DNA of 64,000 nucleotides from Syntrophales bacterium. Its GTDB lineage: Bacteria > Desulfobacterota > Syntrophia > Syntrophales > UBA2210. The notes below the pieces were generated by a model. The model did no database searches, was not told where the DNA came from, and saw nothing but the letters and a program-made list of their open reading frames with translations. The stretch covers positions 1,725,032 through 1,789,031 of the forward strand of contig CAXXWJ010000001.1 of the NCBI GenBank assembly GCA_963665835.2, written 5' to 3'. The position numbers and the translations under genes were made by a program. This document shows, piece by piece, positions 1 to 13,320 of the stretch; within the stretch, counting starts at the first letter, position 1; each line of letters starts with the position of its first letter.

Positions 1-81
1 AGTCCATTTCACCTCCATAACCAGCCAATTTCAGGGCAGAGTGTACCGCCCCATGAATGTGAGGGGGTATTCCCCCGTTTC

Positions 82-1140
82 TCATGTCGGCACCACCTTC
101 GTTCCTCTCATGAGATTGAAGGCCATCTGCCGGAACATCGCATCTATGGCATTTTTGGCCAACTTGGGGAATCTGGCCCGAGAAGCGTTATTGTGAAGAT
201 GAGAAATGCCGAAATACTGTTCAACAATATAACGAACTTTCGGGATAGCCTTGTTTCGCTCTTTCTCATAGGTGGTCAGTTTTGCTGTAGTCGTGTTTTT
301 TCTCATGATGCCGTCCGCGATCTTGTTCAGGGCAAGAAATGCCCTGTTCGGTTCACCGAAGTAGCCCTTGTCGGCAAACACCTTTTTGACAGGTTCTTTC
401 GTATGACAACTGCCGGCAACACAGAACGGAAGGTAGGGGCTGTCATGGTGAGAGGCCGGAGTTATCTCCGTAGCAAGGACGAAACCATACCCGGTATCAA
501 CAGAGGCATGTTCTTTCAGACCAAAGTGGGGGACATCGTTTTTAACCGTCCAGTCGGATTCAATATCCCGGGAGTACTTAAGAGGTTTTCCATGTTTATC
601 AAGTTTGCCCTCTGGAGCTTCTCGATTTTGTTTTTCTTTTTTGAGATTCTCTTTAGTTATGGGATGGCTGGCCGACTGAACCAGGCGTGCGTCAATGGCT
701 ATGCCTTCGTTGATTGTTAGGCCCTTGGAGGCGAATTGGTTAAGGAGTTCATTATTGATCAGACGCATGGTATCTTTGGAGACTCTGCTCCTGACCCGGG
801 AAAAAGTAGAATGATCGGGCGAACGGTAATCAAAGGGAATCCCGAGGAACTTCTTGAAGGAGATACGATCATTGATCTGGGTTTCAAGTTCGGGATCGGA
901 ATCGATCTTGAACCACTGCTGAAGAAGAAGGCATTTCAGGAGTATAAGAGTAGAATAGGCGGCATTTCCTTCGGAGCTTTTCCCGACAGGATAGTTTCTC
1001 ATAATCAGGCGTTCAATTTTAGACCAGTCTGTAATAGCATTGATGGCGTCCATTCTTTCAATAGCCCGGTTATGTTCCATGGAAGAAAAGAGAGAGATAT
1101 CAGCGAAAGAGAGATTGTTTTCCAGTTTTTTGAAGCCCAT
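82..1140 (-). CDS. IS5-family (IS4/IS5 superfamily) DDE transposase
   Basis: ORF 82..1200. Start moved to Met21 (ATG at 1140, GGAGG just upstream). InsH-type N-terminus (NAAYSTLILLKCLLLQQWF, SDPELE) and DDE-type C-terminus (IDARLV, FADKGY, YIVEQYFG) as in IS5-group transposases. IS ends not located; the left end is probably outside the window. Confidence 0.85.
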   Translation of the reverse strand: MGFKKLENNLSFADISLFSSMEHNRAIERMDAINAITDWSKIERLIMRNYPVGKSSEGNAAYSTLILLKCLLLQQWFKIDSDPELETQINDRISFKKFLGIPFDYRSPDHSTFSRVRSRVSKDTMRLINNELLNQFASKGLTINEGIAIDARLVQSASHPITKENLKKEKQNREAPEGKLDKHGKPLKYSRDIESDWTVKNDVPHFGLKEHASVDTGYGFVLATEITPASHHDSPYLPFCVAGSCHTKEPVKKVFADKGYFGEPNRAFLALNKIADGIMRKNTTTAKLTTYEKERNKAIPKVRYIVEQYFGISHLHNNASRARFPKLAKNAIDAMFRQMAFNLMRGTKVVPT

Positions 1141-1604
1141 AGTTCCTCCGAGAGAATGTTTTTTAGGAAAAATTATGGCGCAATAGCAGGTAATAGTCAA
1201 GTAATATTAGTGGCATAGCTTTGAATAACGTGTTTTTAAGAAGAGATTCTGACATTACAAAAGAATAAAATTTGGTGGGTTGTGCAAAGGTCTCAAAAAG
1301 TGTTCGTCTGCTCCCGTCTCTCTGTCCAATCATGTACGCTCCCCATGGAGATTGATAGAGAAATCTTACCGCAGATAAACCATATTATCAAGTTATATTA
1401 TATGTTTATATTAAACTATCGCACCGCTTGCGTGATGCATCTCTGTTCAAACGAGATAACCTGTGATAGGATTTCTCAACAGACCCAGTTCCCCTAGATT
1501 TTAAGTTTTTCTTGTAATGTAGTATCAAACATTTTTAACGAGCATTCAACCTTTCAATCCGAAATAAATAACGATCTTTTTTCTGCTATTGGACAAATTA
1601 CCCA

Positions 1605-1620
1605 TAATATACCAACTTGG
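1605..1620. repeat. Left arm of a perfect 16-bp inverted repeat (TAATATACCAACTTGG), partner at 3073..3088
   Basis: Exact reverse complement of 3073..3088, read directly. The two arms bracket the ISNCY insertion plus ~120 bp of non-IS sequence. Confidence 0.9.
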
Positions 1621-1654
1621 CTCAAGTGGAATATTGCCACAAAATGCCAAGTGT

Positions 1655-1671
1655 CAAAAGTTCATTTTGCT
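1655..1671 (+). repeat. Left copy of the 16-17 bp direct repeat (CAAAAGTTCATTTTGC[T]) flanking the ISNCY element; putative target-site duplication
   Basis: Identical 17-mer at 2984..3000. It directly abuts both IS termini. Confidence 0.85.
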
Positions 1672-2983
1672 GTTAGCAACAAATAGATTTGTCCGGTTTT
1701 GTAGCAAATGAATTGTCCGCTTTGTACTGCTCTGAAAAGCTGCGGAAGTTGTAGGCTGGAGCAGCTTTTCAGAGGAAGTGGCGAGCGGCGGACTTACGCT
1801 GCCTTTTCCTTTCTCTTCTTGTTTTCTTTTAATTTTCCCTGTGCATCATAATCAGCCAATTTCCTCGGTCCGTGGAAAACGGACAGGGAGCCGTCTGTGT
1901 ACCGATGAACATGCACCTTTGCTCTGACATAATGGCATCTATAGAGATTTGATGGGATTTGCAGCGTTTTGCCTTCAAAGCTGACACAGTTATCGGCAGT
2001 TACTGTCCTCGGCAGCAGGTTGCATGAACTCAGCGTTGAATGCCGGCCTATAGACCTCAGCCAGATAACGGTTGGCAGCGTCCATTGTAGTGATTTTTTT
2101 CAGGGCCAGTTCTTTGGGAAGTCGACCTTGATGAGTGCTGAAGGGTCGTTCACTCCGTCCCCGTGCTTGAGGAGAGTAGGCAGCTATCATCTCAACCCCT
2201 AAATGCTTCATGGCACGACCAAACTGCGTAAGCTGCCCCTTACTTACTCTTCCACCGGTCTCAGGCGTATACCAGTAATGACTCCCACGATCGGTGTAGA
2301 GTGAACCGAACAGACCCCTTTGAAGAATCGTGTCACGCACCTCCTGAAAGCTGCTGGATGTGCCTTCTTCCTGAACAAAGAACATACTGTAGTGTTCGTT
2401 TGTCGCATCATCCATTGTAACGATCAGATCCCACTTCTTCCCCGGAACCCATTCATGGGTACTGCCGTCCTGATGCAACATCATCCCCGGCAATGGTGAA
2501 GGATCACGGCGTTTCCTGTGTGTGTCTTTCCTGGGAGCCTTGCTAACCAACCCTCTCGACTGTAGCGTGTTCTTGACCCAAGTGTAGCTTCTCCTCCCTC
2601 CGTCACGCTGGTACCATGAATAAAAATGCTTCACGTTCCAGCCCCGATACCGACCTTCATACTGCCGGGCAAGCGCCATAACTTCATCCACTGGTGCTCG
2701 ACGCGACGATGCCTGGGTTAATCGTTTGTCCAGCAATCCCTCCATACCGCTCTCCTCGTACCGATCAATGTAACGCCGGAACGTTCGGTCACATACTCCC
2801 AACATCCGCGCCGCTTCCTCCTGTGTTAATCGACCTTCCGTCCATACACCATAAGCCTCTTTAAATCGCATAATCCGGATCTCCTGTAGTATCTCTGTCC
2901 GTCTCATTGGTCACCTCCCGGTGCCTCATCCTAACCGGACAGATTACGTGCTACAACTCCGGACATATTACTTGCTCCTGACA
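1671..2983 (-). mobile_element. IS1202-like ISNCY-family insertion sequence, ~1.3 kb, internally deleted
   Basis: Imperfect terminal inverted repeats: 1671 TGTTAGCAACAAATAGATTTGTCCGGTTTTGTAGCAAATGAATTGTCCG versus the reverse complement of 2935..2983, TGTCAGGAGCAAGTAATATGTCCGGAGTTGTAGCACGTAATCTGTCCGG. Shared blocks are TGTCCGG..TTGTAGCA..TGTCCG. It encloses an rve-type transposase and is flanked by a 16-17 bp direct repeat. Confidence 0.8.
1794..2907 (-). pseudogene. ISNCY-family (HTH + rve integrase core) transposase, disrupted by an internal deletion/frameshift
   Basis: The 305-aa ORF (1990..2907) has an HTH (LTQEEAARMLGVCDRTFRRYIDRY) and a DDE core (LHQDGSTH, TMDDATN, LYTDRGSHY, ARGRSER). 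It stops at ..QPAAEDSNCR*. The family-typical C-terminus (RTVTADNCVSFEGKTLQIPSNLYRCHYVRAKVHVHRYTDGSLSVFHGPRKL..) continues in another frame down to the stop at 1794-1796. Confidence 0.75.
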
Positions 2984-3000
2984 CAAAAGTTCATTTTGCT
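2984..3000 (+). repeat. Right copy of the 16-17 bp direct repeat flanking the ISNCY element
   Basis: Identical to 1655..1671. Confidence 0.85.
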
Positions 3001-3072
3001 TGACATTTAAGCACTTTTCCCTTTGCATTCTTTTAAAAAAAGCGCGACACTCCCTGAGCAAACCGGAAAAAA

Positions 3073-3088
3073 CCAAGTTGGTATATTA
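3073..3088. repeat. Right arm of the 16-bp inverted repeat (CCAAGTTGGTATATTA)
   Basis: Exact reverse complement of 1605..1620. It is followed 3 nt later by GTTCTGC (3092..3098), then by the PHP-ATPase gene. Confidence 0.9.
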
Positions 3089-3116
3089 ATTGTTCTGCAG
3101 GGCCAAATTTAATTAA

Positions 3117-5261
3117 ATGAAAATCGACATACATTCTCATACCAAGAAATGCAAGTCAGGTGATGCACCCACAAGGGAAATTGCTCCTGATGATTTCTGC
3201 GAAACGCTTCAGTCCACTGAAGTAGGAATCATTGCGATCACCAATCATAATGTTTTCGATTTGGATCAATTTATAGAGATCGTGGACAGAATGGGTGATA
3301 ATGCCCAAGTTTGGCCGGGAGTAGAATTGGATGTCCAAGAGAATGGTGTGCGTGGACATTTGATAGTGATTGTCTCGCCCCAAGTGGCAAAAGAATTTTC
3401 CGAGAGCGTGGCTAAGATAACCGAAGGCTCCACTCCAGATAGCTTTAAGGGCACTATCGAGCAGGTTCTTGAAACATTCGATGAATTCAAGCCACTATAC
3501 GTGACACACTATAAGCAGAAGACGCCTAGCTTGTCTGATAAGGCACTTGAAAAGTTAATATCAGGGTCAGTGAATCCTGGACGAGTGATTAAGGAGGTAT
3601 CTAACGCGATTTCAGCAGGGATATACATTTCGCACGGTTACGCGTCAATCTACGGTTCCGACGTTCACGATTGGTCTACCTACGAAGAGCAAGCCAGTGG
3701 TCTGCCGGATCTCCGGCTTCCTATGGAGAGTTTTGACCATTTCTATTTACTGCTAGAGAAAGACCCAACAACTATTAATACCATATTAGACAAGAAGGTA
3801 GCAGAGGATCTTATTCTCACGCCATTTGAGGATTCCACTTTTTTAAAGCTCAAAGTTTTTAACGAAATCAACATCGTTTTTGGTCCGAAGGGAACAGGCA
3901 AATCCTGCATTCTTATGGCTATCGCAAAACATTATCGGGACTCCGGTATCGACGCAAATGTCTATGAATCGGCGAGCGACCGGCTTGATGAACTCTTTGA
4001 CACAAAAGGCCGAGATCTTTCTCTTAATCTCAATTCGCACGGAATAAATTATTGCAAAGATGAAATAGAAGCAATCAGAGAGGCATCCGAGGTCGGCGTC
4101 ACAAGCTTGTCTAAATACGAGATCTATTTTCGTATAAAATCTACAAATAAAAACGCGAAAAAAATTAAGCTCAAGGATATCGAGCCAGAAGAAGAAGGTG
4201 GCGCTAAGCGCGAATTCTTAGAATTTAATGAAGGTGTGACAAAAACGAGAGCATTCATTGAGTTCCTGCAAGAGCATCCGTCGGTAAAGAAGGAACTTAG
4301 TACGGAGGAAATCGAAGAGGTTACTCGTATTCTCTCAGGACTTCTTGAACGGATGGTTAATAGGGAGTGGGGTGGCTATTCTGGTTGGAAAGAAATCAAT
4401 TTATTGAATTCGGCCATTGAGAAATTTCGCACGGAGGTGGAACGAAAAACCGGATCGCCAGCCAAACCTATTACAACAGGATTTCGTGAGTATGCTCTTA
4501 ATCGGGTACGGATCGAAGCCAATGTCTCCGAAATCATTAAGAGTGTGGATACTAATATTCCAATACTTAAGGAGGCGGTGGGCAGTCTCGGGCCAAATAA
4601 AGGTGAATTGGAGTTACGGACGGAATTCAAATTCCAGGACGGTACAATTTCCGATGGGAGTCTCAATAAACTGAAGAATGTCAATAAAGGTCCGCAGAAA
4701 ACGTTTGCAAAGACAGTTCGGGAAATCCTCAAACATGCATATGAGGATGACCTTTTCCAGCACATAGCTGACCTCAACGTGATAGATGATGTTGAAAAAA
4801 TCGAAACCGTTTACGAACTGTTGCTCTTCAAGCGGTATTTCGCACTTAATGGACTACCTTATTCTCCATCAAGCGGCGAAGCTTCAATGGTTATGTTGCA
4901 AAAGGAACTGGAAACAGACAAGGAGGTTTACATTCTTGATGAACCGGAACGGAGCCTGGGTAACGAGTATATCAACGATGTGATCGTGCCTTTGATTAAG
5001 GAGCGTGCTCGTGCTGGAAAGAAAGTTATCATTTCGACCCATGATGCGAATATTGCAGTGCGTACACTTCCTTACAGCTCAGTATACCGCCTCCACGGAC
5101 CAGCCGGTTACACAACTTATATAGGAAACCCCTTCTCAAACAATCTAGTGAATCCGAATGATGAAGACGACTGGCTTGATTGGAAAAAGGTCAGCATGAA
5201 AACCCTTGAAGGTGGCGAAGAAGCATTTGGAGAGCGAGGAAAAATCTATGGAAACGGTTAA
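3117..5261 (+). CDS. PHP-domain phosphoesterase fused to an SMC/RecF-like ABC ATPase (Ppl-like candidate defence protein)
   Basis: 714 aa. The N-terminus has a full PHP metal-ligand series: DIHSHT, ITNHN, GVELD, RGHLIV, VTHY, GSDVHD. The ATPase part has Walker A GPKGTGKS (3882-3905), a long Lys/Glu-rich helical insert, ABC signature SPSSGEAS (4863-4886), Walker B VYILDEPE (4926-4949) and H-loop ISTHD. Confidence 0.8.
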   Translation: MKIDIHSHTKKCKSGDAPTREIAPDDFCETLQSTEVGIIAITNHNVFDLDQFIEIVDRMGDNAQVWPGVELDVQENGVRGHLIVIVSPQVAKEFSESVAKITEGSTPDSFKGTIEQVLETFDEFKPLYVTHYKQKTPSLSDKALEKLISGSVNPGRVIKEVSNAISAGIYISHGYASIYGSDVHDWSTYEEQASGLPDLRLPMESFDHFYLLLEKDPTTINTILDKKVAEDLILTPFEDSTFLKLKVFNEINIVFGPKGTGKSCILMAIAKHYRDSGIDANVYESASDRLDELFDTKGRDLSLNLNSHGINYCKDEIEAIREASEVGVTSLSKYEIYFRIKSTNKNAKKIKLKDIEPEEEGGAKREFLEFNEGVTKTRAFIEFLQEHPSVKKELSTEEIEEVTRILSGLLERMVNREWGGYSGWKEINLLNSAIEKFRTEVERKTGSPAKPITTGFREYALNRVRIEANVSEIIKSVDTNIPILKEAVGSLGPNKGELELRTEFKFQDGTISDGSLNKLKNVNKGPQKTFAKTVREILKHAYEDDLFQHIADLNVIDDVEKIETVYELLLFKRYFALNGLPYSPSSGEASMVMLQKELETDKEVYILDEPERSLGNEYINDVIVPLIKERARAGKKVIISTHDANIAVRTLPYSSVYRLHGPAGYTTYIGNPFSNNLVNPNDEDDWLDWKKVSMKTLEGGEEAFGERGKIYGNG

Positions 5262-5538
5262 AGCGACAGTTGTGGAGCTTGAAAAAAAACACTTCATCAA
5301 GATCGAATCCGGGGACGAAGAGATTAAGATCCCTATTTCTGAGGACAAACCGAATGAGGTCAAAAGTGCCTTCAATAAGCTGATCGTTAGAATCAAAGAA
5401 GGAGAGTTTGAGATTAAGTTGGAGGATATTGGCCAGGATCTGTTCTCTCAGGTAGCCTCAGAGTATGTCACTCAACTAAACCGTGAAATTCAGGAGGTAC
5501 GTGGCGAAATGGAGGACTATGGCTTGGTGGAAGATTAA
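5248..5538 (+). CDS. Small acidic hypothetical protein (96 aa), translationally coupled to the PHP-ATPase
   Basis: ATG at 5248 is preceded by GGAGAGCGAGGA and lies 14 nt inside the end of the upstream gene. Glu/Asp/Lys-rich, no TM segment, no motif recognised. The longer track ORF starts at 5206. Confidence 0.55.
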   Translation: METVKATVVELEKKHFIKIESGDEEIKIPISEDKPNEVKSAFNKLIVRIKEGEFEIKLEDIGQDLFSQVASEYVTQLNREIQEVRGEMEDYGLVED

Positions 5539-5599
5539 ATCCGCTCTCTAAAATTACTACTAGATACCGCCTGTCAATTAACAAAAATGAACAGCAATT

Positions 5600-5691
5600 G
5601 CAGAAGCAGGCGGTTCACTTGACGCCGTGGAGTGCGGCGGCGCTGACGCGGCAAGGTTTGGTGGCGGCGCAAGTGACTTTGGTCGTTAACC
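5600..5691 (+). repeat. attC-like site A (degenerate R'' box)
   Basis: R''-position box GCAGAAG (5600-5606), then a 6-nt spacer. L'' GTTCACTTGACGC (5613-5625) pairs with L' GCGCAAGTGAC (5667-5677), leaving two extrahelical bases. A 7-nt spacer precedes R' GTTAACC (5685-5691). The conserved AAC reads AAG. Confidence 0.6.
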
Positions 5692-5735
5692 CAATTATGC
5701 CAATTATTAATGAAATTATAAAAACTACTGTTGCT

Positions 5736-6110
5736 ATGAAAAAAAGGCTCTTATCCTGGTGGCTTGCCAACGTGCCTATTAGTTTTATTCTTTATTTTTT
5801 TTCATCAATATTATTTTATGAATTCTATCGGATTGGCATCGTAGCAGACCCGAAAGAGGTAGAAATGTACTATTTCGGCGGCGAAGCAATGATTGGACGT
5901 GGGGGGTGGAAATATGCTTCAGCAGGCGCTTACTCCTTATCTACTTTTGTTGGGTCCTTTTTATATTTATTAGCAGCTACAGGCTTTTTAGTTGCATATA
6001 AAAAACGGTCAAAATTATTTGTTGGCCTTGCAATTAGTATTTTACTAATGTCGTACTGTTCAGAAAAGTTGTTGAACTTGTGGTTCAAATATAAATATGG
6101 CCTTGGTTAA
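5736..6110 (+). CDS. Cassette-encoded small membrane protein (124 aa, ~4 predicted TM helices), unknown function
   Basis: Track ORF 5598..6110 reads through attC A, so the start was moved to MKKRLLSWW (5736; 5697 is also possible). Hydrophobic segments are visible. The stop TAA lies inside R'' GGTTAAC of attC B. Confidence 0.55.
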   Translation: MKKRLLSWWLANVPISFILYFFSSILFYEFYRIGIVADPKEVEMYYFGGEAMIGRGGWKYASAGAYSLSTFVGSFLYLLAATGFLVAYKKRSKLFVGLAISILLMSYCSEKLLNLWFKYKYGLG

Positions 6111-6170
6111 CCCGGCGCTAAAGCTGATAGCAGCCACAGGGGATGCTCCGCCTTAGCTGTAACGTTAGCG
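6105..6170 (+). repeat. attC-like site B (66 bp, canonical layout)
   Basis: Layout in order: R'' GGTTAAC, 5-nt spacer CCGGC, L'' GCTAAAG, central region, L' CTTAGC (one unpaired base relative to L''), 6-nt spacer TGTAAC, R' GTTAGCG (6164-6170). Confidence 0.75.
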
Positions 6171-6193
6171 ATCCAGTATAGGGAGGTGCCAAA

Positions 6194-6460
6194 ATGAAAC
6201 TAAATGTCAGAGCGTTTTCACTTACCTGCGGAATAGTTTGGGGCGTTGTTGTTTTTTTGTTGACCTGGTGGATAATCGCTTTTGATGGAGCAACTGGTGA
6301 TCCTACTTTCATTGGACGTCTGTATCGGGGGTTTACTATATCTCCAGTCGGCAGTTTCATTGGATTTATCTGGGCGTTTGTGGATGGTTTGATAGTAGGG
6401 GCAATTTTCGCTTGGTTCTATAATCTAATATCTAATCGCTTTTGGAAGACAGAATCATAA
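6194..6460 (+). CDS. Cassette-encoded small membrane protein (88 aa, 2 TM), unknown function
   Basis: GGGAGG sits 7 nt before the ATG. Two hydrophobic helices (GIVWGVVVFLLTWWIIAF and FIGFIWAFVDGLIVGAIFAWFY). It lies between attC B and attC C. Confidence 0.65.
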   Translation: MKLNVRAFSLTCGIVWGVVVFLLTWWIIAFDGATGDPTFIGRLYRGFTISPVGSFIGFIWAFVDGLIVGAIFAWFYNLISNRFWKTES

Positions 6461-6469
6461 ATCAGTTTC

Positions 6470-6552
6470 GGCTAACCATCCGGGAGCGGCTTTACGCATA
6501 AGTTTTTGGTTCGCGAACTGCCGAGAGCTGCGCCTCACCCAGAACGTTATGA
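6470..6552 (+). repeat. attC-like site C (83 bp)
   Basis: R'' GGCTAAC (6470-6476), 5-nt spacer, GGGAGCGGC pairing with GCGCCTCACCC (with bulges), then R' GTTATGA (6546-6552). Confidence 0.7.
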
Positions 6553-6568
6553 GCAAGGACGAAAACCA

Positions 6569-6914
6569 ATGGCATTTAGAGATGTTGAACTTCAGAAAGC
6601 AAAAAAGATAGTAGGCAGACTTTGTTAAGAAAAAAACGCCAACCGAACTTAAGGATCAATTGCTGGTTCAATATGAAATAGAAAAGCAAAACATCATTGT
6701 TTATGAGGTGTGTCCTGCTTGGAAAAATCCAACTGAATTCGCCAGAATGCCGTTGGCTAATTTGACTTATGTGAAAAGCTAAAATATATGGAAAATGTAT
6801 TGGAAAAGGGCAAATGGAACATGGGTTATATATGGGCCCAAAGGTACATCGAAGGATTTAGGGATTCTTGTGAAGGAAATTGAAAAATATGCTTATGGCT
6901 GCTTCTTTGGATAA
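6569..6914 (+). pseudogene. DUF3024-like cassette gene, inactivated
   Basis: Reads MAFRDVELQKAKKIVGRLC*, then shifts frame in an A-run to ..KTPTELKDQLLVQYEIEKQNIIVYEVCPAWKNPTEFARMPLANLTYVKS*NIWKMYWKRANGTWVIYGPKG..YAYGCFFG*. The pattern resembles the DUF3024 family common in integron cassettes (from memory). There are two premature stops plus one frameshift. Confidence 0.6.
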
Positions 6915-6921
6915 AATGGAC

Positions 6922-6981
6922 TCATAACACGTCACTAGTGCGGATGCGATATGGCCGCACCGCTTTTCGCTGACGTTGAAC
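6922..6981 (+). repeat. attC-like site D (60 bp)
   Basis: R'' TCATAAC (6922-6928). Stems ACGTCA/TGACGT and GTGCGG/CCGCAC. R' GTTGAAC (6975-6981), which fits GTTRRRY. Confidence 0.7.
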
Positions 6982-7192
6982 AGGAAAATATATGAAAGGT
7001 TGACTTACATCAGGCTGAGATAGTTAATAAATTAGGGTTAATTTTTCGAAACTTGCTAAAGGGCATTTCATTTTTAACGGACATTCTTGCTAAGGGCAAT
7101 AAGACAACCCAACCAGAGAAGTGGCGCGTATTACTCAATGAATGCTGGAAATGCAACGCTTAATCCTTCAAAATAATTTTGGAATCACTGAA

Positions 7193-7756
7193 ATGAAAAG
7201 AAATATACTCAACCGCTATTCACGAACCGCTGGTAATGAAATTATTATAGATATTGCCGCTAGGAGAATTGAGGATTTATTTAGTGATTTTGACAAACAT
7301 GCGCCATATCGGAAAAAAGAGCTGGATCAAGATCTGGTTGATTATCTTATTGACTCTGCCAGTGAAATTGGAACAAACAAATTTGTTATTCAATTTCATT
7401 TCACAAAATTGACGGATGAAAATCTTACCTCTCGTGTAACAGCGAGTGTGCGTAATTATTTTCTATATTTAATAGCTCTTGAGTTTAGGGCTTTGAGAAG
7501 AATGGCTCGTTCTTCTTTGATTCTCTTTGCTATCGGAGTTGTATTCCTTTTCCTGTCGGTATGGGTTAATCAAAAAACTGTAGATAATGGCACCGTTATC
7601 GGCCATGTCTTCGCAGAAGGTCTTACTGTAGCAGCATGGGTTTCTCTGTGGAACGCCATTGCAAACCTCCTTATTGACTGGGCCCCTCGTCGTCGACTAA
7701 TAAAAATGTACAAAAATATTTCCAAAGCCAAGATAATATTCAGTAAGATTGCATAG
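7193..7756 (+). CDS. Hypothetical protein with soluble N-terminal domain and two C-terminal TM helices
   Basis: ORF 7142..7756; an alternative start is MKRNIL at 7193. TM segments SSLILFAIGVVFLFLSVWV and GLTVAAWVSLWNAIANLLI. It is the first ORF after attC D. No family recognised. Confidence 0.55.
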   Translation: MKRNILNRYSRTAGNEIIIDIAARRIEDLFSDFDKHAPYRKKELDQDLVDYLIDSASEIGTNKFVIQFHFTKLTDENLTSRVTASVRNYFLYLIALEFRALRRMARSSLILFAIGVVFLFLSVWVNQKTVDNGTVIGHVFAEGLTVAAWVSLWNAIANLLIDWAPRRRLIKMYKNISKAKIIFSKIA

Positions 7757-7925
7757 TATGTCTGTTGGAAATCGGGGAACGCACATAGCTGTCTTCTTGG
7801 CTTGCTGTCCCGTTAATGAGTACGAAGGAAATCTGGTACCATTACTTCATCCTTGATTTTGTCGACTTCAGCAAGGGACCCTCAGAATCTGTTTTCGTTC
7901 TTTATACCTCTGAATATAGCCAACA

Positions 7926-8555
7926 TTACCTTATAAAGTTCATCATCTCTTTTTCCTCTTTCTCCGGTGGAGGCACCGGTGAGGATTTTTTCATCATCAT
8001 TATCCACGCCATGTTCTTGCCCAGCACTCGCATAATCTGCAACCCCTCGGTGTCCTTCTCTGCTTCACCGGGTGTTCGGCCATGGATGATGTTCCAGTAG
8101 TTGGCTGTAGCTATGATCATTTCAGCATAGTTCAGATAATGGTTAAGCCCGTCTAGCGCGGATGATCCACCGGAGCGGCGCACGGCCACGACAGCTGCGC
8201 CCACCTTGTGGCGGAACCAGTTCCCATTTGCCCCGGATACATAAAAGAGGCGGTCGAGAAAGCTTTTCATTGTGCCTGCAATACCAGAATAGTGAACAGG
8301 TGACCCAAGCACCAGGCCATCAGCAGCCGTTATCTTAGGCAACTGACCGTTGAAATCATCCCCGCTCATGCTGCATTTGCCGTCGCGGCTGGTGTAGCAT
8401 TTGAGGCAGCCCATACAGCCGCGTATGTTCAAATGTCCTATCGGTAATATTTCAAATTCAATATCTGCCGCTTCCAGTTCGTTGCCCAGTACGCTCAATG
8501 CTTTATAGGTATTGCCTTTGCGTTTGGGACTTCCGTTTAAAGCTATCACCTTCAT
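7926..8555 (-). CDS. Flavodoxin-like fold NAD(P)H-dependent FMN reductase / iron-sulfur flavoprotein-like
   Basis: MKVIALNGSPKRKGNT, a Cys cluster CMGCLKC..GKC, and GSPVHYSGIAGTMKSFLDR match the Isf/NADPH-FMN reductase pattern. Confidence 0.8.
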   Translation of the reverse strand: MKVIALNGSPKRKGNTYKALSVLGNELEAADIEFEILPIGHLNIRGCMGCLKCYTSRDGKCSMSGDDFNGQLPKITAADGLVLGSPVHYSGIAGTMKSFLDRLFYVSGANGNWFRHKVGAAVVAVRRSGGSSALDGLNHYLNYAEMIIATANYWNIIHGRTPGEAEKDTEGLQIMRVLGKNMAWIMMMKKSSPVPPPEKEEKEMMNFIR

Positions 8556-8935
8556 TTTATCTGGGCTTCCTTTATTTTTTTTCTATGGCCTGACTACCAC
8601 TGGCCGCACGTTACATTACTTCTGTACCTCCTACATTTGAATATAATTGACAAGACATTTTTTATAGTGCAGTAAATCGGAATCTTTCTATCAAGATCTT
8701 ATAGCCAATAGTCATAACCCCGAAATATATATCTCATTTAAGGATAGTAAGGGGCATGTCCTGGTAAAATCCATAAAGGGCTCTTCGGGAGTGGCTTAAA
8801 CAAAAGGTTCAACCAATTGCCATCGCTCTCGGGAGGAACCATTAAATTTTTCCACTTTCTTTCTTGACCGTCCTGTCTTTACCATGACAATAAGGACGCA
8901 TCCCTAATTAATCCATTCGTTAAAAGGATTTTCGC

Positions 8936-9190
8936 ATGAATTCCGAAAAAAATATATTGGGCACAGCCGTTTATCCCGATTATCACCAGTTGTTGAAGCT
9001 GGTACAGGCAAAGATGCCCTATGGAAAATATGCCGGTCGATATCTTGTGGATCTTCCCGAATCATATGTTGTCTGGTTTTCGCAGAAAGGCTTCCCACAG
9101 GACGAACTGGGTGATATGCTTCGTACGATCTACGAAATAAAAACAAACGGGCTCGAGCATCTTCTGGAACCGTTGAAAGGATCGCGGTAA
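8936..9190 (+). CDS. DUF3820 family protein
   Basis: MPYGKYAGRYLVDLPESYVVWFSQKGFPQDELGDML..IKTNGLEHLL matches the conserved DUF3820 pattern. Confidence 0.75.
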   Translation: MNSEKNILGTAVYPDYHQLLKLVQAKMPYGKYAGRYLVDLPESYVVWFSQKGFPQDELGDMLRTIYEIKTNGLEHLLEPLKGSR

Positions 9191-9195
9191 AAAGC

Positions 9196-9429
9196 ATGGA
9201 AACATTTGAATTCTTCGGTGAATATATTGAGCTGAACAAGCTGCTAAAGGCATCGGGGCTGTGTGAAACGGGGGGCATGGCAAAGATTGAAATTGAGAAC
9301 GGCATGATCAGGGTTGACGGAACAGTCGAATACAGGAAGCGATGCAAGATAAGAGATGGCCAGATGGTTCAGTATGGTGGCCGTAAGATCAAGGTGGTCG
9401 GTCCCGGAACTGAAGGTACGGAATCCTGA
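9196..9429 (+). CDS. S4-domain RNA-binding protein (YbcJ-like)
   Basis: YIELNKLLKASGLCETGGMAKIEIENGMIRVDGTVEYRKRCKIRDGQMV is a typical stand-alone S4 pattern. Confidence 0.75.
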   Translation: METFEFFGEYIELNKLLKASGLCETGGMAKIEIENGMIRVDGTVEYRKRCKIRDGQMVQYGGRKIKVVGPGTEGTES

Positions 9430-9497
9430 AGGTTTTAAGAAACTGCCGGTATGGAATGGCTTCCACCGGGCAAAATTCTGATTAAAGGACCATTTTC

Positions 9498-11276
9498 ATG
9501 TTTCTTCCCACCACGCAAAAGGAGATTAAAGCCCTGGGATGGAAATGGCTCGACGTCATCCTCATAACCGGCGACAGTTATATCGATTCGCCCTTCATCG
9601 GCGTTGCTGTCATCGGGAAAATTCTCCTAAGTGCCGGTTACCGGGTGGGTGTTATTGCCCAGCCCGGAAGGGTCTCTGGTGATGATATCAGCCGGTTGGG
9701 CGAACCTCGTCTGTTCTGGGGAGTCACAGGGGGCTGCATCGATTCGATGGTTGCCAACTATACAGCAGCGGGGCGGAAGCGCAGGAGTGACGATTATACG
9801 CCGGGTGGCTTAAACAACCGCCGCCCCGACAGGGCAACGATAGCCTACAGCAATCTTATAAGAACCCATTTCAAGGGAACAGTCCCCATTGTTCTCGGCG
9901 GTATCGAGGCAAGCCTGAGAAGGATAGCCCATTATGATTTCTGGTCCAATACGATAAGAAGATCAATTCTTTTTGACGCAAAGGCCGATTACCTTCTCTA
10001 TGGAATGGCGGACCGCTCCATAGTCGAGCTGGCTGACTGCCTCAAAGGGGGCGGTGATCCCCGTGCGGTTCGCGGGATCTGCTACGCCTCCCCCGATCTT
10101 GTCGAGGGCTGTCTGGAGCTGCCCGCTTTCGATTATGCGGCGCAAAGCAAAGAGGCCTTCACGGAAATGTTCCGTCTTTTCTATCGAAATAACGATCCAG
10201 TTACGGCCCTGCCGCTTGCGCAGAAGCAGGACAACCGCTATCTAATTCAGACCCCGCCGGCCTACAGCCTCTCCAGCCGGGAGCTGGACGCCGTGCATGA
10301 CCTGGACTATGAGAGGGATCTTCACCCCTATTACCGTGCAGAGGGTGAGGTCAAAGCACTGGATACAATAGGCTTTTCCATCGCAACCCATCGGGGATGC
10401 TACGGAGAGTGTAATTTCTGCGCCATAACGATCCATCAGGGGCGAAAGGTTACGTCCCGCAGCCGGGCTTCAATCCTTGGTGAAGCGGAAGCTTTTACGA
10501 GGCACCCGCGTTTTAAGGGTGTCATACAGGATGTGGGTGGGCCGACTGCCAACATGTACGGCATTGACTGTGACAGAAAAGAAAAACAGGGCGGCTGCCC
10601 GGGCAAGCGATGCCTCTTCCCGAAGATATGTTCCCAGCTCCCCATAGATCACAGGCAGCAAGCCTCTCTGCTTAAGGCGATTCGCGCAGTACAGGGTGTT
10701 AAGAAGGTATTTATCGCCTCGGGCATACGGCATGATCTTATCATGGCGGACAGGAAGAATGGCACGGACTACCTGAAGCAGGTTGTCCGCCATCACCTTT
10801 CGGGACAGATGAAACTGGCACCGGAGCATTCGGAGCCGCAAGTCCTTCAGAAAATGGGGAAATCGGGGAAAGATACGCTGCTCGCCTTCAGAGATCTTTT
10901 TTCAGACATTGCAAGCCGTGGAGAAAAGAAACAGTTCCTGACCTACTATATAATAGCCGCACATCCGGGATGTACAGAAGACGATATGGCAAGGCTCCGG
11001 TCCTTTGCCCTGGGAGAACTGCAATTCCTCCCCGAGCAGGTTCAGGTCTTTACGCCTACGCCTTCTACCTGGTCCACCCTGATGTACTGGACGGAACGTG
11101 ACCCCTTTTCAGGAAAGGCCTGTTTTGTAGAAAAAACATTCCGTGGCCGAGAAAGACAGAAGGAAATCCTGGCAGATCACAGGGCCAATAAGCAGCAACG
11201 GGAGCGATCGAGGTCAAAAAATCAGGGTGCCCATTCCCGTCCTGAAAATTATCGGAAGAAAGGACATCGCAGATGA
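9498..11276 (+). CDS. ygiQ: YgiQ-family radical SAM protein (UPF0313)
   Basis: The N-terminus MFLPTT..E.K..GW..LDVILITGDSYIDSPFIGVAVIGKIL and the CxxxCxxC cluster (CYGECNFCAI) are characteristic of YgiQ. It has a basic C-terminal tail. Confidence 0.9.
   Translation: MFLPTTQKEIKALGWKWLDVILITGDSYIDSPFIGVAVIGKILLSAGYRVGVIAQPGRVSGDDISRLGEPRLFWGVTGGCIDSMVANYTAAGRKRRSDDYTPGGLNNRRPDRATIAYSNLIRTHFKGTVPIVLGGIEASLRRIAHYDFWSNTIRRSILFDAKADYLLYGMADRSIVELADCLKGGGDPRAVRGICYASPDLVEGCLELPAFDYAAQSKEAFTEMFRLFYRNNDPVTALPLAQKQDNRYLIQTPPAYSLSSRELDAVHDLDYERDLHPYYRAEGEVKALDTIGFSIATHRGCYGECNFCAITIHQGRKVTSRSRASILGEAEAFTRHPRFKGVIQDVGGPTANMYGIDCDRKEKQGGCPGKRCLFPKICSQLPIDHRQQASLLKAIRAVQGVKKVFIASGIRHDLIMADRKNGTDYLKQVVRHHLSGQMKLAPEHSEPQVLQKMGKSGKDTLLAFRDLFSDIASRGEKKQFLTYYIIAAHPGCTEDDMARLRSFALGELQFLPEQVQVFTPTPSTWSTLMYWTERDPFSGKACFVEKTFRGRERQKEILADHRANKQQRERSRSKNQGAHSRPENYRKKGHRR

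Positions 11277-11637: not shown

Positions 11638-13320
<1,683 letters not shown>

Follow-up and report, generated by a model that had tools for sequence, protein, structure and literature searches.

In the established integron mechanism, a gene cassette is handled as a circle by the integrase IntI, which exchanges the bottom strand at R'. Clusters of attC sites with no integron integrase within 4 kb are classed by IntegronFinder as CALINs, of which 38% have neighbouring insertion sequences (IS) and 83% hold fewer than six attC sites (PMC4889954). In the current study, we examine a 64-kb stretch of DNA (hereafter, the window) and report that the + strand between positions 3092 and 6981 is, in our firm opinion, an integron-type array of four gene cassettes, each ending in its own attC (A–D), with no integron integrase nearby. 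The four sites lie between 5600 and 6981 on the + strand, no integrase is found within 4 kb (were the limit set at 10 kb, only part of the left side would be in view), and by the 4 kb rule of IntegronFinder the array is an ordinary member of the CALINs, a common and well described class. The original prediction of a CALIN-like array without an integrase is thus upheld by comparative junctions at G|TT, save for its extent, as the true start lies 2.5 kb further left, at 3092.

The array was first recognised from chained complementarity between the R' box of one site and the R'' box of the next. The boxes stand where they had been reported: GTTAACC (5685–5691) is complementary to GGTTAAC (6105–6111) at 7/7 positions, GTTAGCG (6164–6170) to GGCTAAC (6470–6476) at 6/7, and GTTATGA (6546–6552) to TCATAAC (6922–6928) at 7/7, while element D terminates in the box GTTGAAC (6975–6981). 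The first 6 nt of each of these cassettes are accordingly complementary to the cassette's own R'' (7/7, 6/7, and 7/7 in the window). Such pairing is above chance: when 219 other ORFs of the window (at least 60 aa, both strands) were scored by pairing a GTTNNNN from the 100 nt preceding the start with an NNNNAAC from the interval −7 to +30 nt around the stop, no ORF reached 7/7 and three reached 6/7, against scores of 7, 6, and 7 for the three cassettes. The elements measure 92, 66, 83, and 60 nt (A–D), within the approximate 55–140 nt span of attC sites, and have a GC content of 53–64%, in line with the GC-rich elements of 60–92 bp that had been described; the cassette bodies are at 35–43% and the whole window at 47%, so that short, co-oriented, AT-rich ORFs are set between GC-rich sites. 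One detail fails, namely that all four elements begin with xxxxAAC, because element A starts with GCAGAAG (5600–5606).

It is the comparison with other assemblies that settles the integron-type interpretation. Cassette shuffling with breakpoints exactly at G|TT, which had been proposed as a check, is seen at three of the five boundaries (3092, 5685, and 6164); those at 6546 and 6975 are placed by box pairing, not by junction comparison. At 3092, a 2.5 kb unit with 86–91% identity recurs in five contigs (L003, L004, L005, L006, and L008), always starting at G|TTCTGC and showing four different left flanks. At 5685, L008 has the same attC followed by a different cassette and L021 has the same cassette preceded by a different attC, and at 6164 the same cassette is preceded in L017–L019 by the attC of a methyltransferase cassette. 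The chain rule is symmetric and therefore unable by itself to orient the array; the orientation is fixed by L003 and L004/L006, which have a gene and its attC in common and diverge immediately after GGTC-GTT, so that attC travels with the gene on its left. This bears out the proposed direction, with an integrase expected to the left. Box complementarity also recurs in other arrays, in the pairs GTTGTGT/ACACAAC, GTTAGCC/GGCTAAC (in L008), and GTTCTGC/GCAGAAC. Three further cassettes in L003, L004, and L008 show 7/7 chain complementarity, one of them predicted beforehand: the R'' ACACAAC of an XhoI restriction-modification cassette called for an upstream GTTGTGT, which was then found at 190–196 of L004. 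Taken across contigs, these comparisons show that the units move independently of one another and are joined precisely at G|TT. Read from raw sequence, chained R'/R'' complementarity is able to reveal a genuine cassette array even where no integrase is visible.

On the integron-type reading, each cassette would once have been a circle made up of an ORF and its attC. The paired R''/R' and L''/L' boxes of the folded attC bottom strand would have served as the binding site of a tyrosine recombinase, IntI, and one strand would have been exchanged between the G and the TT of R' with attI, another attC, or a genomic site. Exchange at G|TT would account for the first 6 nt of every cassette, which are the tail of a box that pairs with the cassette's own R''. 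No intI was found beside the related arrays among the contigs fetched, so that dependence on IntI is deduced from the footprint only.

The side on which an integrase would be expected is occupied by two IS elements, as the original prediction had it and as Pfam matches, inverted repeats, and tblastn confirm. The outer one, an IS5-family-like insertion sequence (1–1290, − strand, left end possibly outside the window), has a transposase ORF at 82–1200 with matches to Pfam DUF772 (E = 5e-19) and DDE_Tnp_1 (E = 1e-14), and no second copy of this element was detected within the window. The inner one (1605–3088, − strand) carries terminal inverted repeats of 16 bp (TAATATACCAACTTGG) and has its insertion point 3 bp to the left of where the first cassette starts; it is assigned to the ISNCY family from a 90% cluster whose members include proteins named 'ISNCY family transposase' (391 aa). 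Its transposase is frameshifted, with aa 1–300 in frame −2 and aa 318–389 in frame −3 (tblastn). The statement that no intI is in view also stands: the best tblastn match of IntI1 across the 64 kb has E = 6.6, with a query that detects a 23%-identical recombinase in L009, and Pfam annotation of the larger window ORFs contains no PF00589, that is, no tyrosine recombinase is encoded in the window. The recombinase of L009 was itself rejected as an integron integrase, as it sits among unrelated genes including one for an HU-like DNA-binding protein, and L009 was rejected as an integron, there being no attC downstream of its cassette 0 homolog. A complete integron would have intI, attI, and Pc upstream, where this window has no intI and two IS elements; an attI is not recognisable from its sequence alone.

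How the array came to stand without an integrase can be read in more than one way. Possibly, although we would not call it probable, no local integrase ever existed, and the first cassette was inserted at an attG site (5'-GWT-3') by an integrase acting in trans, with later cassettes entering at the resident attC. The entry of cassettes outside att sites is established experimentally, and small CALINs have been proposed to derive in this way (bioRxiv 10.1101/2022.09.11.507474). In L003 and L008, the first cassette adjoins AT-rich, hairpin-free, non-attC DNA with no integrase nearby (in L008, beside the conjugation genes TrwC and TrwB), and the right end of the array in the window meets ordinary chromosomal genes directly after G|TTGAAC. 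Such AT-rich left flanks are, however, equally compatible with unrecognised attI sites, and in the window the original left junction is masked by the ISNCY element. Somewhat unlikely, in our judgement, is an array that forms the distal part of a complete or recently IS-split integron, with intI and attI just beyond the left edge of the window or elsewhere in the genome that carries the array, and with cassettes that could be mobilised in trans. The attC orientation does put intI to the left, where the two IS elements now lie, the ISNCY element 3 bp from the first G|TT; just ~3.1 kb is visible left of the first cassette; and half of the CALINs occur in IntI-encoding genomes, IS-mediated splitting being a recognised route to them (PMC4889954). 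Against this, no intI fragment was found in 1–3100 or in the rest of the window, the 310 nt between the IS elements are AT-rich with no integrase-like ORF, and attC A, a 5' box, and the DUF3024 gene have all decayed, which points to a prolonged lack of selection for mobility; the 4 kb rule scores the locus as a CALIN regardless.

Whichever way the integron-type array arose, it is probably inert and decaying. We infer this from the lack of an integrase in 64 kb, the two IS elements on the attI/intI/Pc side, the loss from attC A of the conserved C of the R'' AAC, the point mismatch in the 5' box of cassette 2, and the pseudogene in cassette 3. The locus thus combines several independent signs of decay, among them an R'' point mutation, a pseudogene, and an IS insertion at a boundary.

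The attC sites were delineated from sequence and constrained folds. attC A (5600–5691, + strand, 92 nt) comprises the mutated R'' GCAGAAG (AAC in its ortholog), the 5-nt spacer CAGGC, an L'' of GGTTCACTTG[A]CGCCG, an L' of CGGCGCAAGTGACT (5665–5678), the 6-nt spacer TTGGTC, and the R' GTTAACC (5685–5691); its ortholog at 12484–12574 of L008 is identical at 84/92 positions, retains an intact R'' (GCAGAAC), and is followed by a different cassette. attC B (6105–6170, + strand, 66 nt) has the layout that had been claimed for it (R'' GGTTAAC, 5 nt, L'' GCTAAAG, L' CTTAGC, 6 nt, and R' GTTAGCG), a single A in L'' being left unpaired, and an attC of the same family is found on a different cassette at 625–689 of L021. 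attC C (6470–6552, + strand, 83 nt) runs from R'' GGCTAAC through a 5-nt spacer, a nine-position L stem, and another 5-nt spacer to R' GTTATGA. Pairing with bulged bases, as proposed for A and C, describes A, which has one unpaired A, but not C, which has mismatches instead (7/9 L pairs). attC D (6922–6981, + strand, 60 nt), the last site of the array, has R'' TCATAAC, the paired spacers ACGTC/GACGT, a GTGCGG/CCGCAC stem, and R' GTTGAAC; in the constrained fold its L-box position is atypical, with a displaced stem and a 2-nt asymmetry. The AAC...GTT triplets are thus present outright in three of the four sites (B, C, and D), A being a point mutant with AAG...GTT, and spacers of 5/6 nt with clear L''/L' stems in A and B are matched by 5/5 nt in C and by paired spacers in D. 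In attC sites, extrahelical bases of the '' arm mark the bottom strand as the recombinogenic one. The unpaired base is a top-strand A in the L'' of both A and B (a T on the bottom strand), with none in C, while related attC sites outside the window have an unpaired C, G, or A. In the best-studied attC sites the extrahelical base of the L box is a G, from which the bottom-strand T of A and B differs.

Bottom-strand folding of A–D, suggested as a check, gives unexceptional minimum free energies (z = −0.69, +0.21, +0.73, and −2.07): folding energy alone is at chance level for A–C and marginal for D. It was dropped as evidence because the unconstrained folds of both strands are insignificant except for this marginal D. 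A structure-only scan of the window, in which every AAC...GTT pair 50–135 nt apart was folded under constraint, passed through a hairpin-symmetry filter, and compared with reversed-sequence decoys, showed no excess of AAC...GTT hairpins, did not separate the four sites from decoys, and is therefore unsuited to finding further sites, and a search of Rfam with elements A–D matched no family. The elements resemble neither one another nor any other sequence in the window, and contain no T-runs. That they are plain intergenic hairpins (terminators, REP-like repeats, or MITE remnants) with coincidental box matches is barely credible and is effectively refuted by the comparative junctions: folding is no better than shuffles for three of the four elements and AAC...GTT hairpins of similar quality are equally common in decoys, yet none of the 219 control ORFs scores 7/7, junctions vary exactly at G|TT in several independent contigs, one box was predicted and then found, and neither T-runs nor mutual likeness mark the elements as terminators or repeats.

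The cargo of the window array and of related arrays is typical of cassettes and includes DUF3024, toxin-antitoxin, restriction-modification, and defence genes. Cassette 0 (3093–5685, + strand, 2593 bp, 86–91% identical to five contigs) begins at the R'-type box GTTCTGC (3092–3098, + strand), at whose G|TT crossover homology with those contigs starts and which is complementary to the R'' GCAGAAC of cassette 0 orthologs in relatives. It consists of two genes plus attC A and, at 2.6 kb, is larger than the ~2 kb given as the upper size of known cassettes (PMC4889954). The first gene (3117–5261, + strand) encodes a 714-aa PHP/ABC-type ATPase that matches PADLOC PDC-M49A (E = 2.2e-37) and, in its N-terminal part and below cutoff, an NCBIfam TrlF-family ATPase; the second (5248–5538, + strand) encodes 96 aa and overlaps it. 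Cassette 0 thus carries a candidate anti-phage system, which by sequence resembles the PADLOC defence candidate PDC-M49. In related contigs, the cassette 0-type unit adjoins the XhoI restriction-modification cassette, and a PDC-M49-like cassette beside restriction-modification cassettes accords with recent work that regards integron cassettes as a reservoir of anti-phage systems. As a compact and naturally mobile version of a PDC-M49-like system, cassette 0 is open to assay.

The three remaining cassettes are small. Cassette 1 (5686–6164, + strand, 479 bp) combines attC B with a 137-aa predicted membrane protein of unknown function (CDS 5697–6110, + strand), whose stop codon lies within R'' and whose homologs are all environmental (17/17); its ortholog in L021 (91% aa identity) has the same G|TTAACCCAATTATGCC start and a different attC before it. 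Cassette 2 (6165–6546, + strand, 382 bp) combines attC C with an 88-aa membrane protein of the holin_4 family (CDS 6194–6460; NCBIfam NF037947, 85.7 bits against a cutoff of 70). Its orthologs in L017–L019 (88% aa identity) start at G|TTAGCC, after the attC of the methyltransferase cassette, and in L035 and L036 the gene has other neighbours upstream. Cassette 3 (6547–6975, + strand, 429 bp), whose boundaries come from the 7/7 box pair only, holds attC D and a DUF3024 pseudogene (6569–6914) with a frameshift at an A-run near 6620–6630 and an in-frame TAA at 6780–6782. With the lesions bridged, it matches PF11225 (E = 2.4e-27); a homolog search with the repaired protein gave zero matches, and the DUF3024 gene of L022 is too divergent to align with it. 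The original statement of one short co-oriented ORF per unit, with its stop in or within 10 nt of R'', holds for the stop positions, but this third small unit has a pseudogene in place of an intact ORF. The right flank (6982–7925, + strand) marks the end of the array and contains a 204-aa membrane-protein ORF (7142–7756), which was rejected as a further cassette since its twelve metagenome homologs stand in unrelated, non-cassette contexts without attC-like flanks; no attC was found in 7757–7925. A fifth attC sought by the chain rule was likewise rejected, as GTTCAAC occurs once, at 8807, with no hairpin after it, and one chance match is expected per ~5 kb.

A separate observation is that orthologous cassettes carry non-orthologous attC bodies, the switch falling at R'' or directly behind it. 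In the PDC-M49-like cassette, the ORFs are 90.9% identical between the window and L003 and 86.9% between the window and L008, yet attC body A is common to the window and L008; in L003, L004, and L006 the same cassette bears a 124-nt attC body similar to the attC on the XhoI cassette beside it. Cassettes 1 and 2 show a switch of this kind after R'' as well. Classical bottom-strand recombination exchanges at R' only. The footprint would fit a deletion produced when adjacent attC sites recombine through the top strand, at AA|C in R'', or another process of attC replacement, a suggestion we offer as quite improbable. Were it general, it would provide a natural route for re-fitting ORFs with the attC type of the current host. 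Replacement of attC bodies at R'' would bear on the open question of how cassettes acquire attC, and is a small, testable lead on their turnover.

Set against known systems, the array is closest to the CALINs (PMC4889954), with four attC-type sites that share a strand and are spaced by no more than 420 nt, no integrase within 4 kb, a small size, an adjacent IS, and cassettes of unknown or non-resistance function; it differs in how its sites were identified, from box chaining and comparative junctions instead of a covariance model, and in that one R'' triplet is mutated. The CALINs gain a member from a lineage that lacks close relatives in the protein collection. As in SALIN/attG insertion (bioRxiv 10.1101/2022.09.11.507474), the first cassette in two relatives meets AT-rich non-attC DNA at G|TT, whereas the window has a four-cassette cluster, not a single site, and its left junction is IS-masked. 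Like the anti-phage cassettes of integrons (bioRxiv 10.1101/2024.07.02.601686, 10.1101/2024.07.02.601719), cassette 0 is a compact two-gene system, matching PDC-M49A; unlike them, both PDC-M49 and cassette 0 are candidates for a role in defence. With sedentary chromosomal integrons, such as the Vibrio superintegron and the Deltaproteobacteria arrays modelled by Ghaly et al. 2021 (PMC8352920), the locus shares a chromosomal location, ORFs that are short, AT-rich, and co-oriented, and a cargo of DUF3024, toxin-antitoxin, and defence genes, and the related arrays L004–L006 share homogeneous 124-nt attC sites. The window itself departs from them in the absence of intI and attI and in four attC sites that are unrelated in sequence and length, a heterogeneous set closer to that of mobile integrons and CALINs than to a large array of uniform sites.

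On sequence evidence, it is comparison with other public contigs that settles the interpretation of this region as a cassette array. The 714-aa gene (3117–5261) and its partner (5248–5538), which form cassette 0, recur at 86–91% DNA identity in five other contigs (L003, equivalent to L007, as well as L004, L005, L006, and L008), and in all five the homology starts 0–2 nt upstream of GTTCTGC at window position 3092. The flank to the left of this point varies: the window has the ISNCY element, L003 has AT-rich DNA that forms no hairpin, L008 has AT-rich DNA unlike that of L003, and L004–L006 have the attC of an XhoI restriction-modification cassette. L003, L004, and L006 have in common the gene and a 124-nt attC, whose R'' box (GCAGAAC) is the exact complement of GTTCTGC, and they part ways directly after ...GGTC-GTT; thus, the attC moves with the gene to its left, with crossover at G|TT. 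Divergence right after GTT also fixes the orientation of the array, which the chain rule alone—that is, complementarity between the 5' box of a cassette and its own R''—cannot do because it is symmetric under strand reversal. In L008, element A is 84/92 identical with R'' GCAGAAC intact, and beyond GTTA comes another cassette, made up of a 379-aa ORF and a Dam-family methyltransferase, which itself obeys the chain rule with GTTAGCC at its start and GGCTAAC at its attC.

The other units behave similarly. An ortholog of cassette 1 in L021 (91% aa identity) starts at the same G|TTAACCCAATTATGCC, preceded by the attC of a different cassette, and orthologs of cassette 2 in L017–L019 (88% aa identity) start with G|TTAGCC after the attC of a methyltransferase cassette; further cassette 2 relatives are preceded by other genes, in arrays rich in toxin-antitoxin systems. 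From R'' of the XhoI cassette (ACACAAC), the chain rule predicts GTTGTGT at the cassette start, and this was found at L004 190–196, directly 3' of another attC-like hairpin. For six cassettes from the window, L003, L004, and L008, at least one copy shows complementarity at 23 of the 24 variable box positions, while a more distant cassette 1 homolog in L022 gives a weaker match (5/7). Junctions at G|TT between cassettes and differing neighbours, as expected from the original prediction, were seen in L003–L006, L008, L017–L019, and L021. Judged from these alignments, the units are shown to be independently mobile, to join at G|TT, and to carry an attC that belongs to the ORF on its left.

Within the window, direct reading of the region bore out the predicted box coordinates: GTTAACC (5685–5691) and GGTTAAC (6105–6111) are complementary at 7/7 positions, GTTAGCG (6164–6170) and GGCTAAC (6470–6476) at 6/7, and GTTATGA (6546–6552) and TCATAAC (6922–6928) at 7/7, with GTTGAAC (6975–6981) at the 3' end of element D. 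Elements A (5600–5691), B (6105–6170), C (6470–6552), and D (6922–6981) measure 92, 66, 83, and 60 nt, and their GC content is 53–64%, compared to 35–43% in the flanking cassette bodies and 47% in the window. Site B indeed has the textbook layout (R'' GGTTAAC, 5 nt, L'' GCTAAAG, L' CTTAGC, 6 nt, R' GTTAGCG), with one unpaired A in L''; A and B share canonical spacers of 5 and 6 nt and a single unpaired base in L'', and the architecture of C and D is less regular. An xxxxAAC start, originally ascribed to all four elements, holds for B, C, and D, but A begins with GCAGAAG (5600–5606), so the AAC triplet is missing from A in this genome. Box chaining exceeds chance: when GTTNNNN up to 100 nt upstream was compared with NNNNAAC at the stop for 219 further ORFs (60 aa or longer, both strands), none matched at 7/7 and three at 6/7, against 7, 6, and 7 for the three cassettes. 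Together with the comparative junctions, this supports the proposed integron-type array. The folding energies of the single-stranded bottom strands of A–D are no more than chance relative to dinucleotide shuffles (z = -0.69, +0.21, +0.73, and -2.07, respectively), and a window-wide scan that folded every AAC...GTT pair 50–135 nt apart, with the triplets forced to pair, yielded no more good or symmetric hairpins in the real strands than in reversed-sequence decoys.

Sites A–D lie where predicted, but the array extends 2.5 kb further left than supposed, running from 3092 to 6981 on the forward strand, on which all four cassettes lie. Cassette 0 (3093–5685) comprises the 714-aa gene, its 96-aa partner, and attC A. 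The larger gene encodes a 714-aa protein that PADLOC assigns to the defence candidate PDC-M49A (E = 2.2e-37) and that combines a PHP-like N-terminus, common to TrlF-family ATPases, with an ABC/AAA_15-21-type ATPase. Outside the window, only contigs L003–L008, from deltaproteobacterial MAGs and metagenomes, have this gene pair as a cassette; homologs at 65–76% DNA identity (L009–L015) come from Desulfocapsa, Verrucomicrobiales, Filomicrobium, Gallionella, and Granulosicoccaceae MAGs and have no recognisable attC flanks, so the system also spreads by other routes. A complete XhoI-type restriction-modification pair (a 256-aa endonuclease and a 544-aa Eco57I-like methylase) forms a cassette of ~2.5 kb with its own 124-nt attC (L004 283–2684; also L005 and L006), directly upstream of the PDC-M49-like cassette, thus placing two defence cassettes in tandem.

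Cassette 1 (5686–6164) encodes a 137-aa predicted membrane protein, with 17 homologs, all environmental, and ends in attC B. Cassette 2 (6165–6546, with attC C) encodes an 88-aa holin_4-family protein (NF037947, 85.7 bits, cutoff 70), whose family numbers more than 1000 homologs, some in ordinary chromosomal contexts. One such gene in a Deltaproteobacteria MAG (L002 5986–6285, aligning with window 6179–6478) lies 30 nt downstream of a 300-aa membrane-protein gene, close to rnpA/yidC; its ribosome-binding region is the same as in the window and the homology extends ~18 nt beyond the stop, over the R'' position, making it a non-cassette relative or else a cassette that has decayed completely. 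Cassette 3 (6547–6975, with attC D) holds a DUF3024 pseudogene whose reading frame is shifted at an A-run and interrupted by an in-frame TAA; bridging both lesions gives a PF11225 match across the whole profile (E = 2.4e-27). Related metagenome contigs (L022, L035, and L036–L038) are cassette arrays of the typical kind: they carry toxin-antitoxin pairs (HigB/HTH_3, PemK/MazE, and PIN), of which some are inverted, several of their R'' boxes are degraded from AAC to AGC or ACC, and none of the contigs has an integrase.

As established for integrons, IntI binds the attC bottom strand, in its folded form, through the R and L boxes and swaps a single strand at the R' triplet; the intermediate is resolved by replication, and circular cassettes insert at attI or other attC sites. 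One pattern departs from this scheme. The cassette 0 ORFs of the window are more similar to those of L003 (90.9%) than to those of L008 (86.9%), yet the 92-nt body A is common to the window and L008 (12484–12574), whereas L003 (8749–8872), L004, and L006 carry the 124-nt body, 80/124 identical to the attC of the neighbouring XhoI cassette (0/500 shuffles score as well). The distribution of attC bodies is at odds with the ORF tree, the switch point lying at or just after R'', and cassettes 1 and 2 exhibit similar switches after R''. Bottom-strand recombination cannot produce such a switch; a candidate process that would is a deletion in which adjacent attC sites exchange their top strands.

As predicted, the 64 kb contain no integrase: tblastn with an IntI1 sequence, sensitive enough to detect a 23%-identical recombinase in L009, gave a best E of 6.6, and Pfam annotation found no tyrosine recombinase among the larger ORFs. 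The two IS elements reported left of the array are present. An ISNCY-family element (1605–3088) with 16-bp inverted repeats, a frameshifted transposase (aa 1–300 in one frame, aa 318–389 in another), and no clear target-site duplication stops 3 bp short of the first G|TT; to its left, an IS5-like element reaches the window edge, and the 310 nt between them are AT-rich and hold no integrase-like ORF. The array is probably inert and decaying now, given the AAC-to-AAG change in R'' of A, the mismatched 5' box of cassette 2 (GTTAGCC in the L017 ortholog), the DUF3024 pseudogene, and the IS elements at the expected attI/Pc place with no integrase.

As to origin, it is plausible that a trans-acting integrase inserted cassettes at a genomic site: cassettes also insert at genomic GWT sites (bioRxiv 10.1101/2022.09.11.507474), the left flanks of cassette 0 in L003 and L008 are not attC, and the L008 flank adjoins conjugation genes. 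These encode a TrwC relaxase and a TrwB coupling protein (L008 1329–9538), a neighbourhood that suggests a conjugative element. At the left junction in L008 (9960–9990), the boxes of the cassette itself form a perfect 7-bp inverted repeat, GCAGAAC-N13-GTTCTGC. The array could also be what is left of an integron that IS elements split or eroded. Some other type of repeat or signal is rejected for A–D, which have no copies elsewhere in the window, no mutual resemblance, no T-run after any of the four (0/4), and no Rfam family. The sole Rfam match in 1–9500, fluoride-riboswitch-like and inside the 714-aa CDS (3150–3206), reached 18.7 bits (E = 0.18), where the gathering score is 34, and is almost certainly due to chance.

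No further attC was found downstream of D, and the homologs of the next gene, which encodes a 204-aa membrane protein, all lie in unrelated contexts outside cassettes; thus, the array ends at D. This gene, though not recognisable as a cassette, may also be foreign, since GC is low (35–43%) across 3090–7925, a stretch that begins with the first cassette and takes in the 204-aa ORF, versus 48% in the remaining window. Beyond lie ordinary chromosomal genes (FMN reductase and YgiQ, then PheS, enolase, and V-type ATPase). The core proteins of the source genome are singletons at 90% identity clustering.

Under the IntegronFinder rule, which asks for two or more attC sites within 4 kb and for no integrase over the same distance, the locus is a CALIN, a class in which 38% of members have neighbouring IS (PMC4889954). 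Defence systems in integron cassettes are an established theme (bioRxiv 10.1101/2024.07.02.601686; bioRxiv 10.1101/2024.07.02.601719). All features of the locus fit both the CALIN class and the cassette arrays modelled for Deltaproteobacteria (PMC8352920), and it is an ordinary representative of an already known class.
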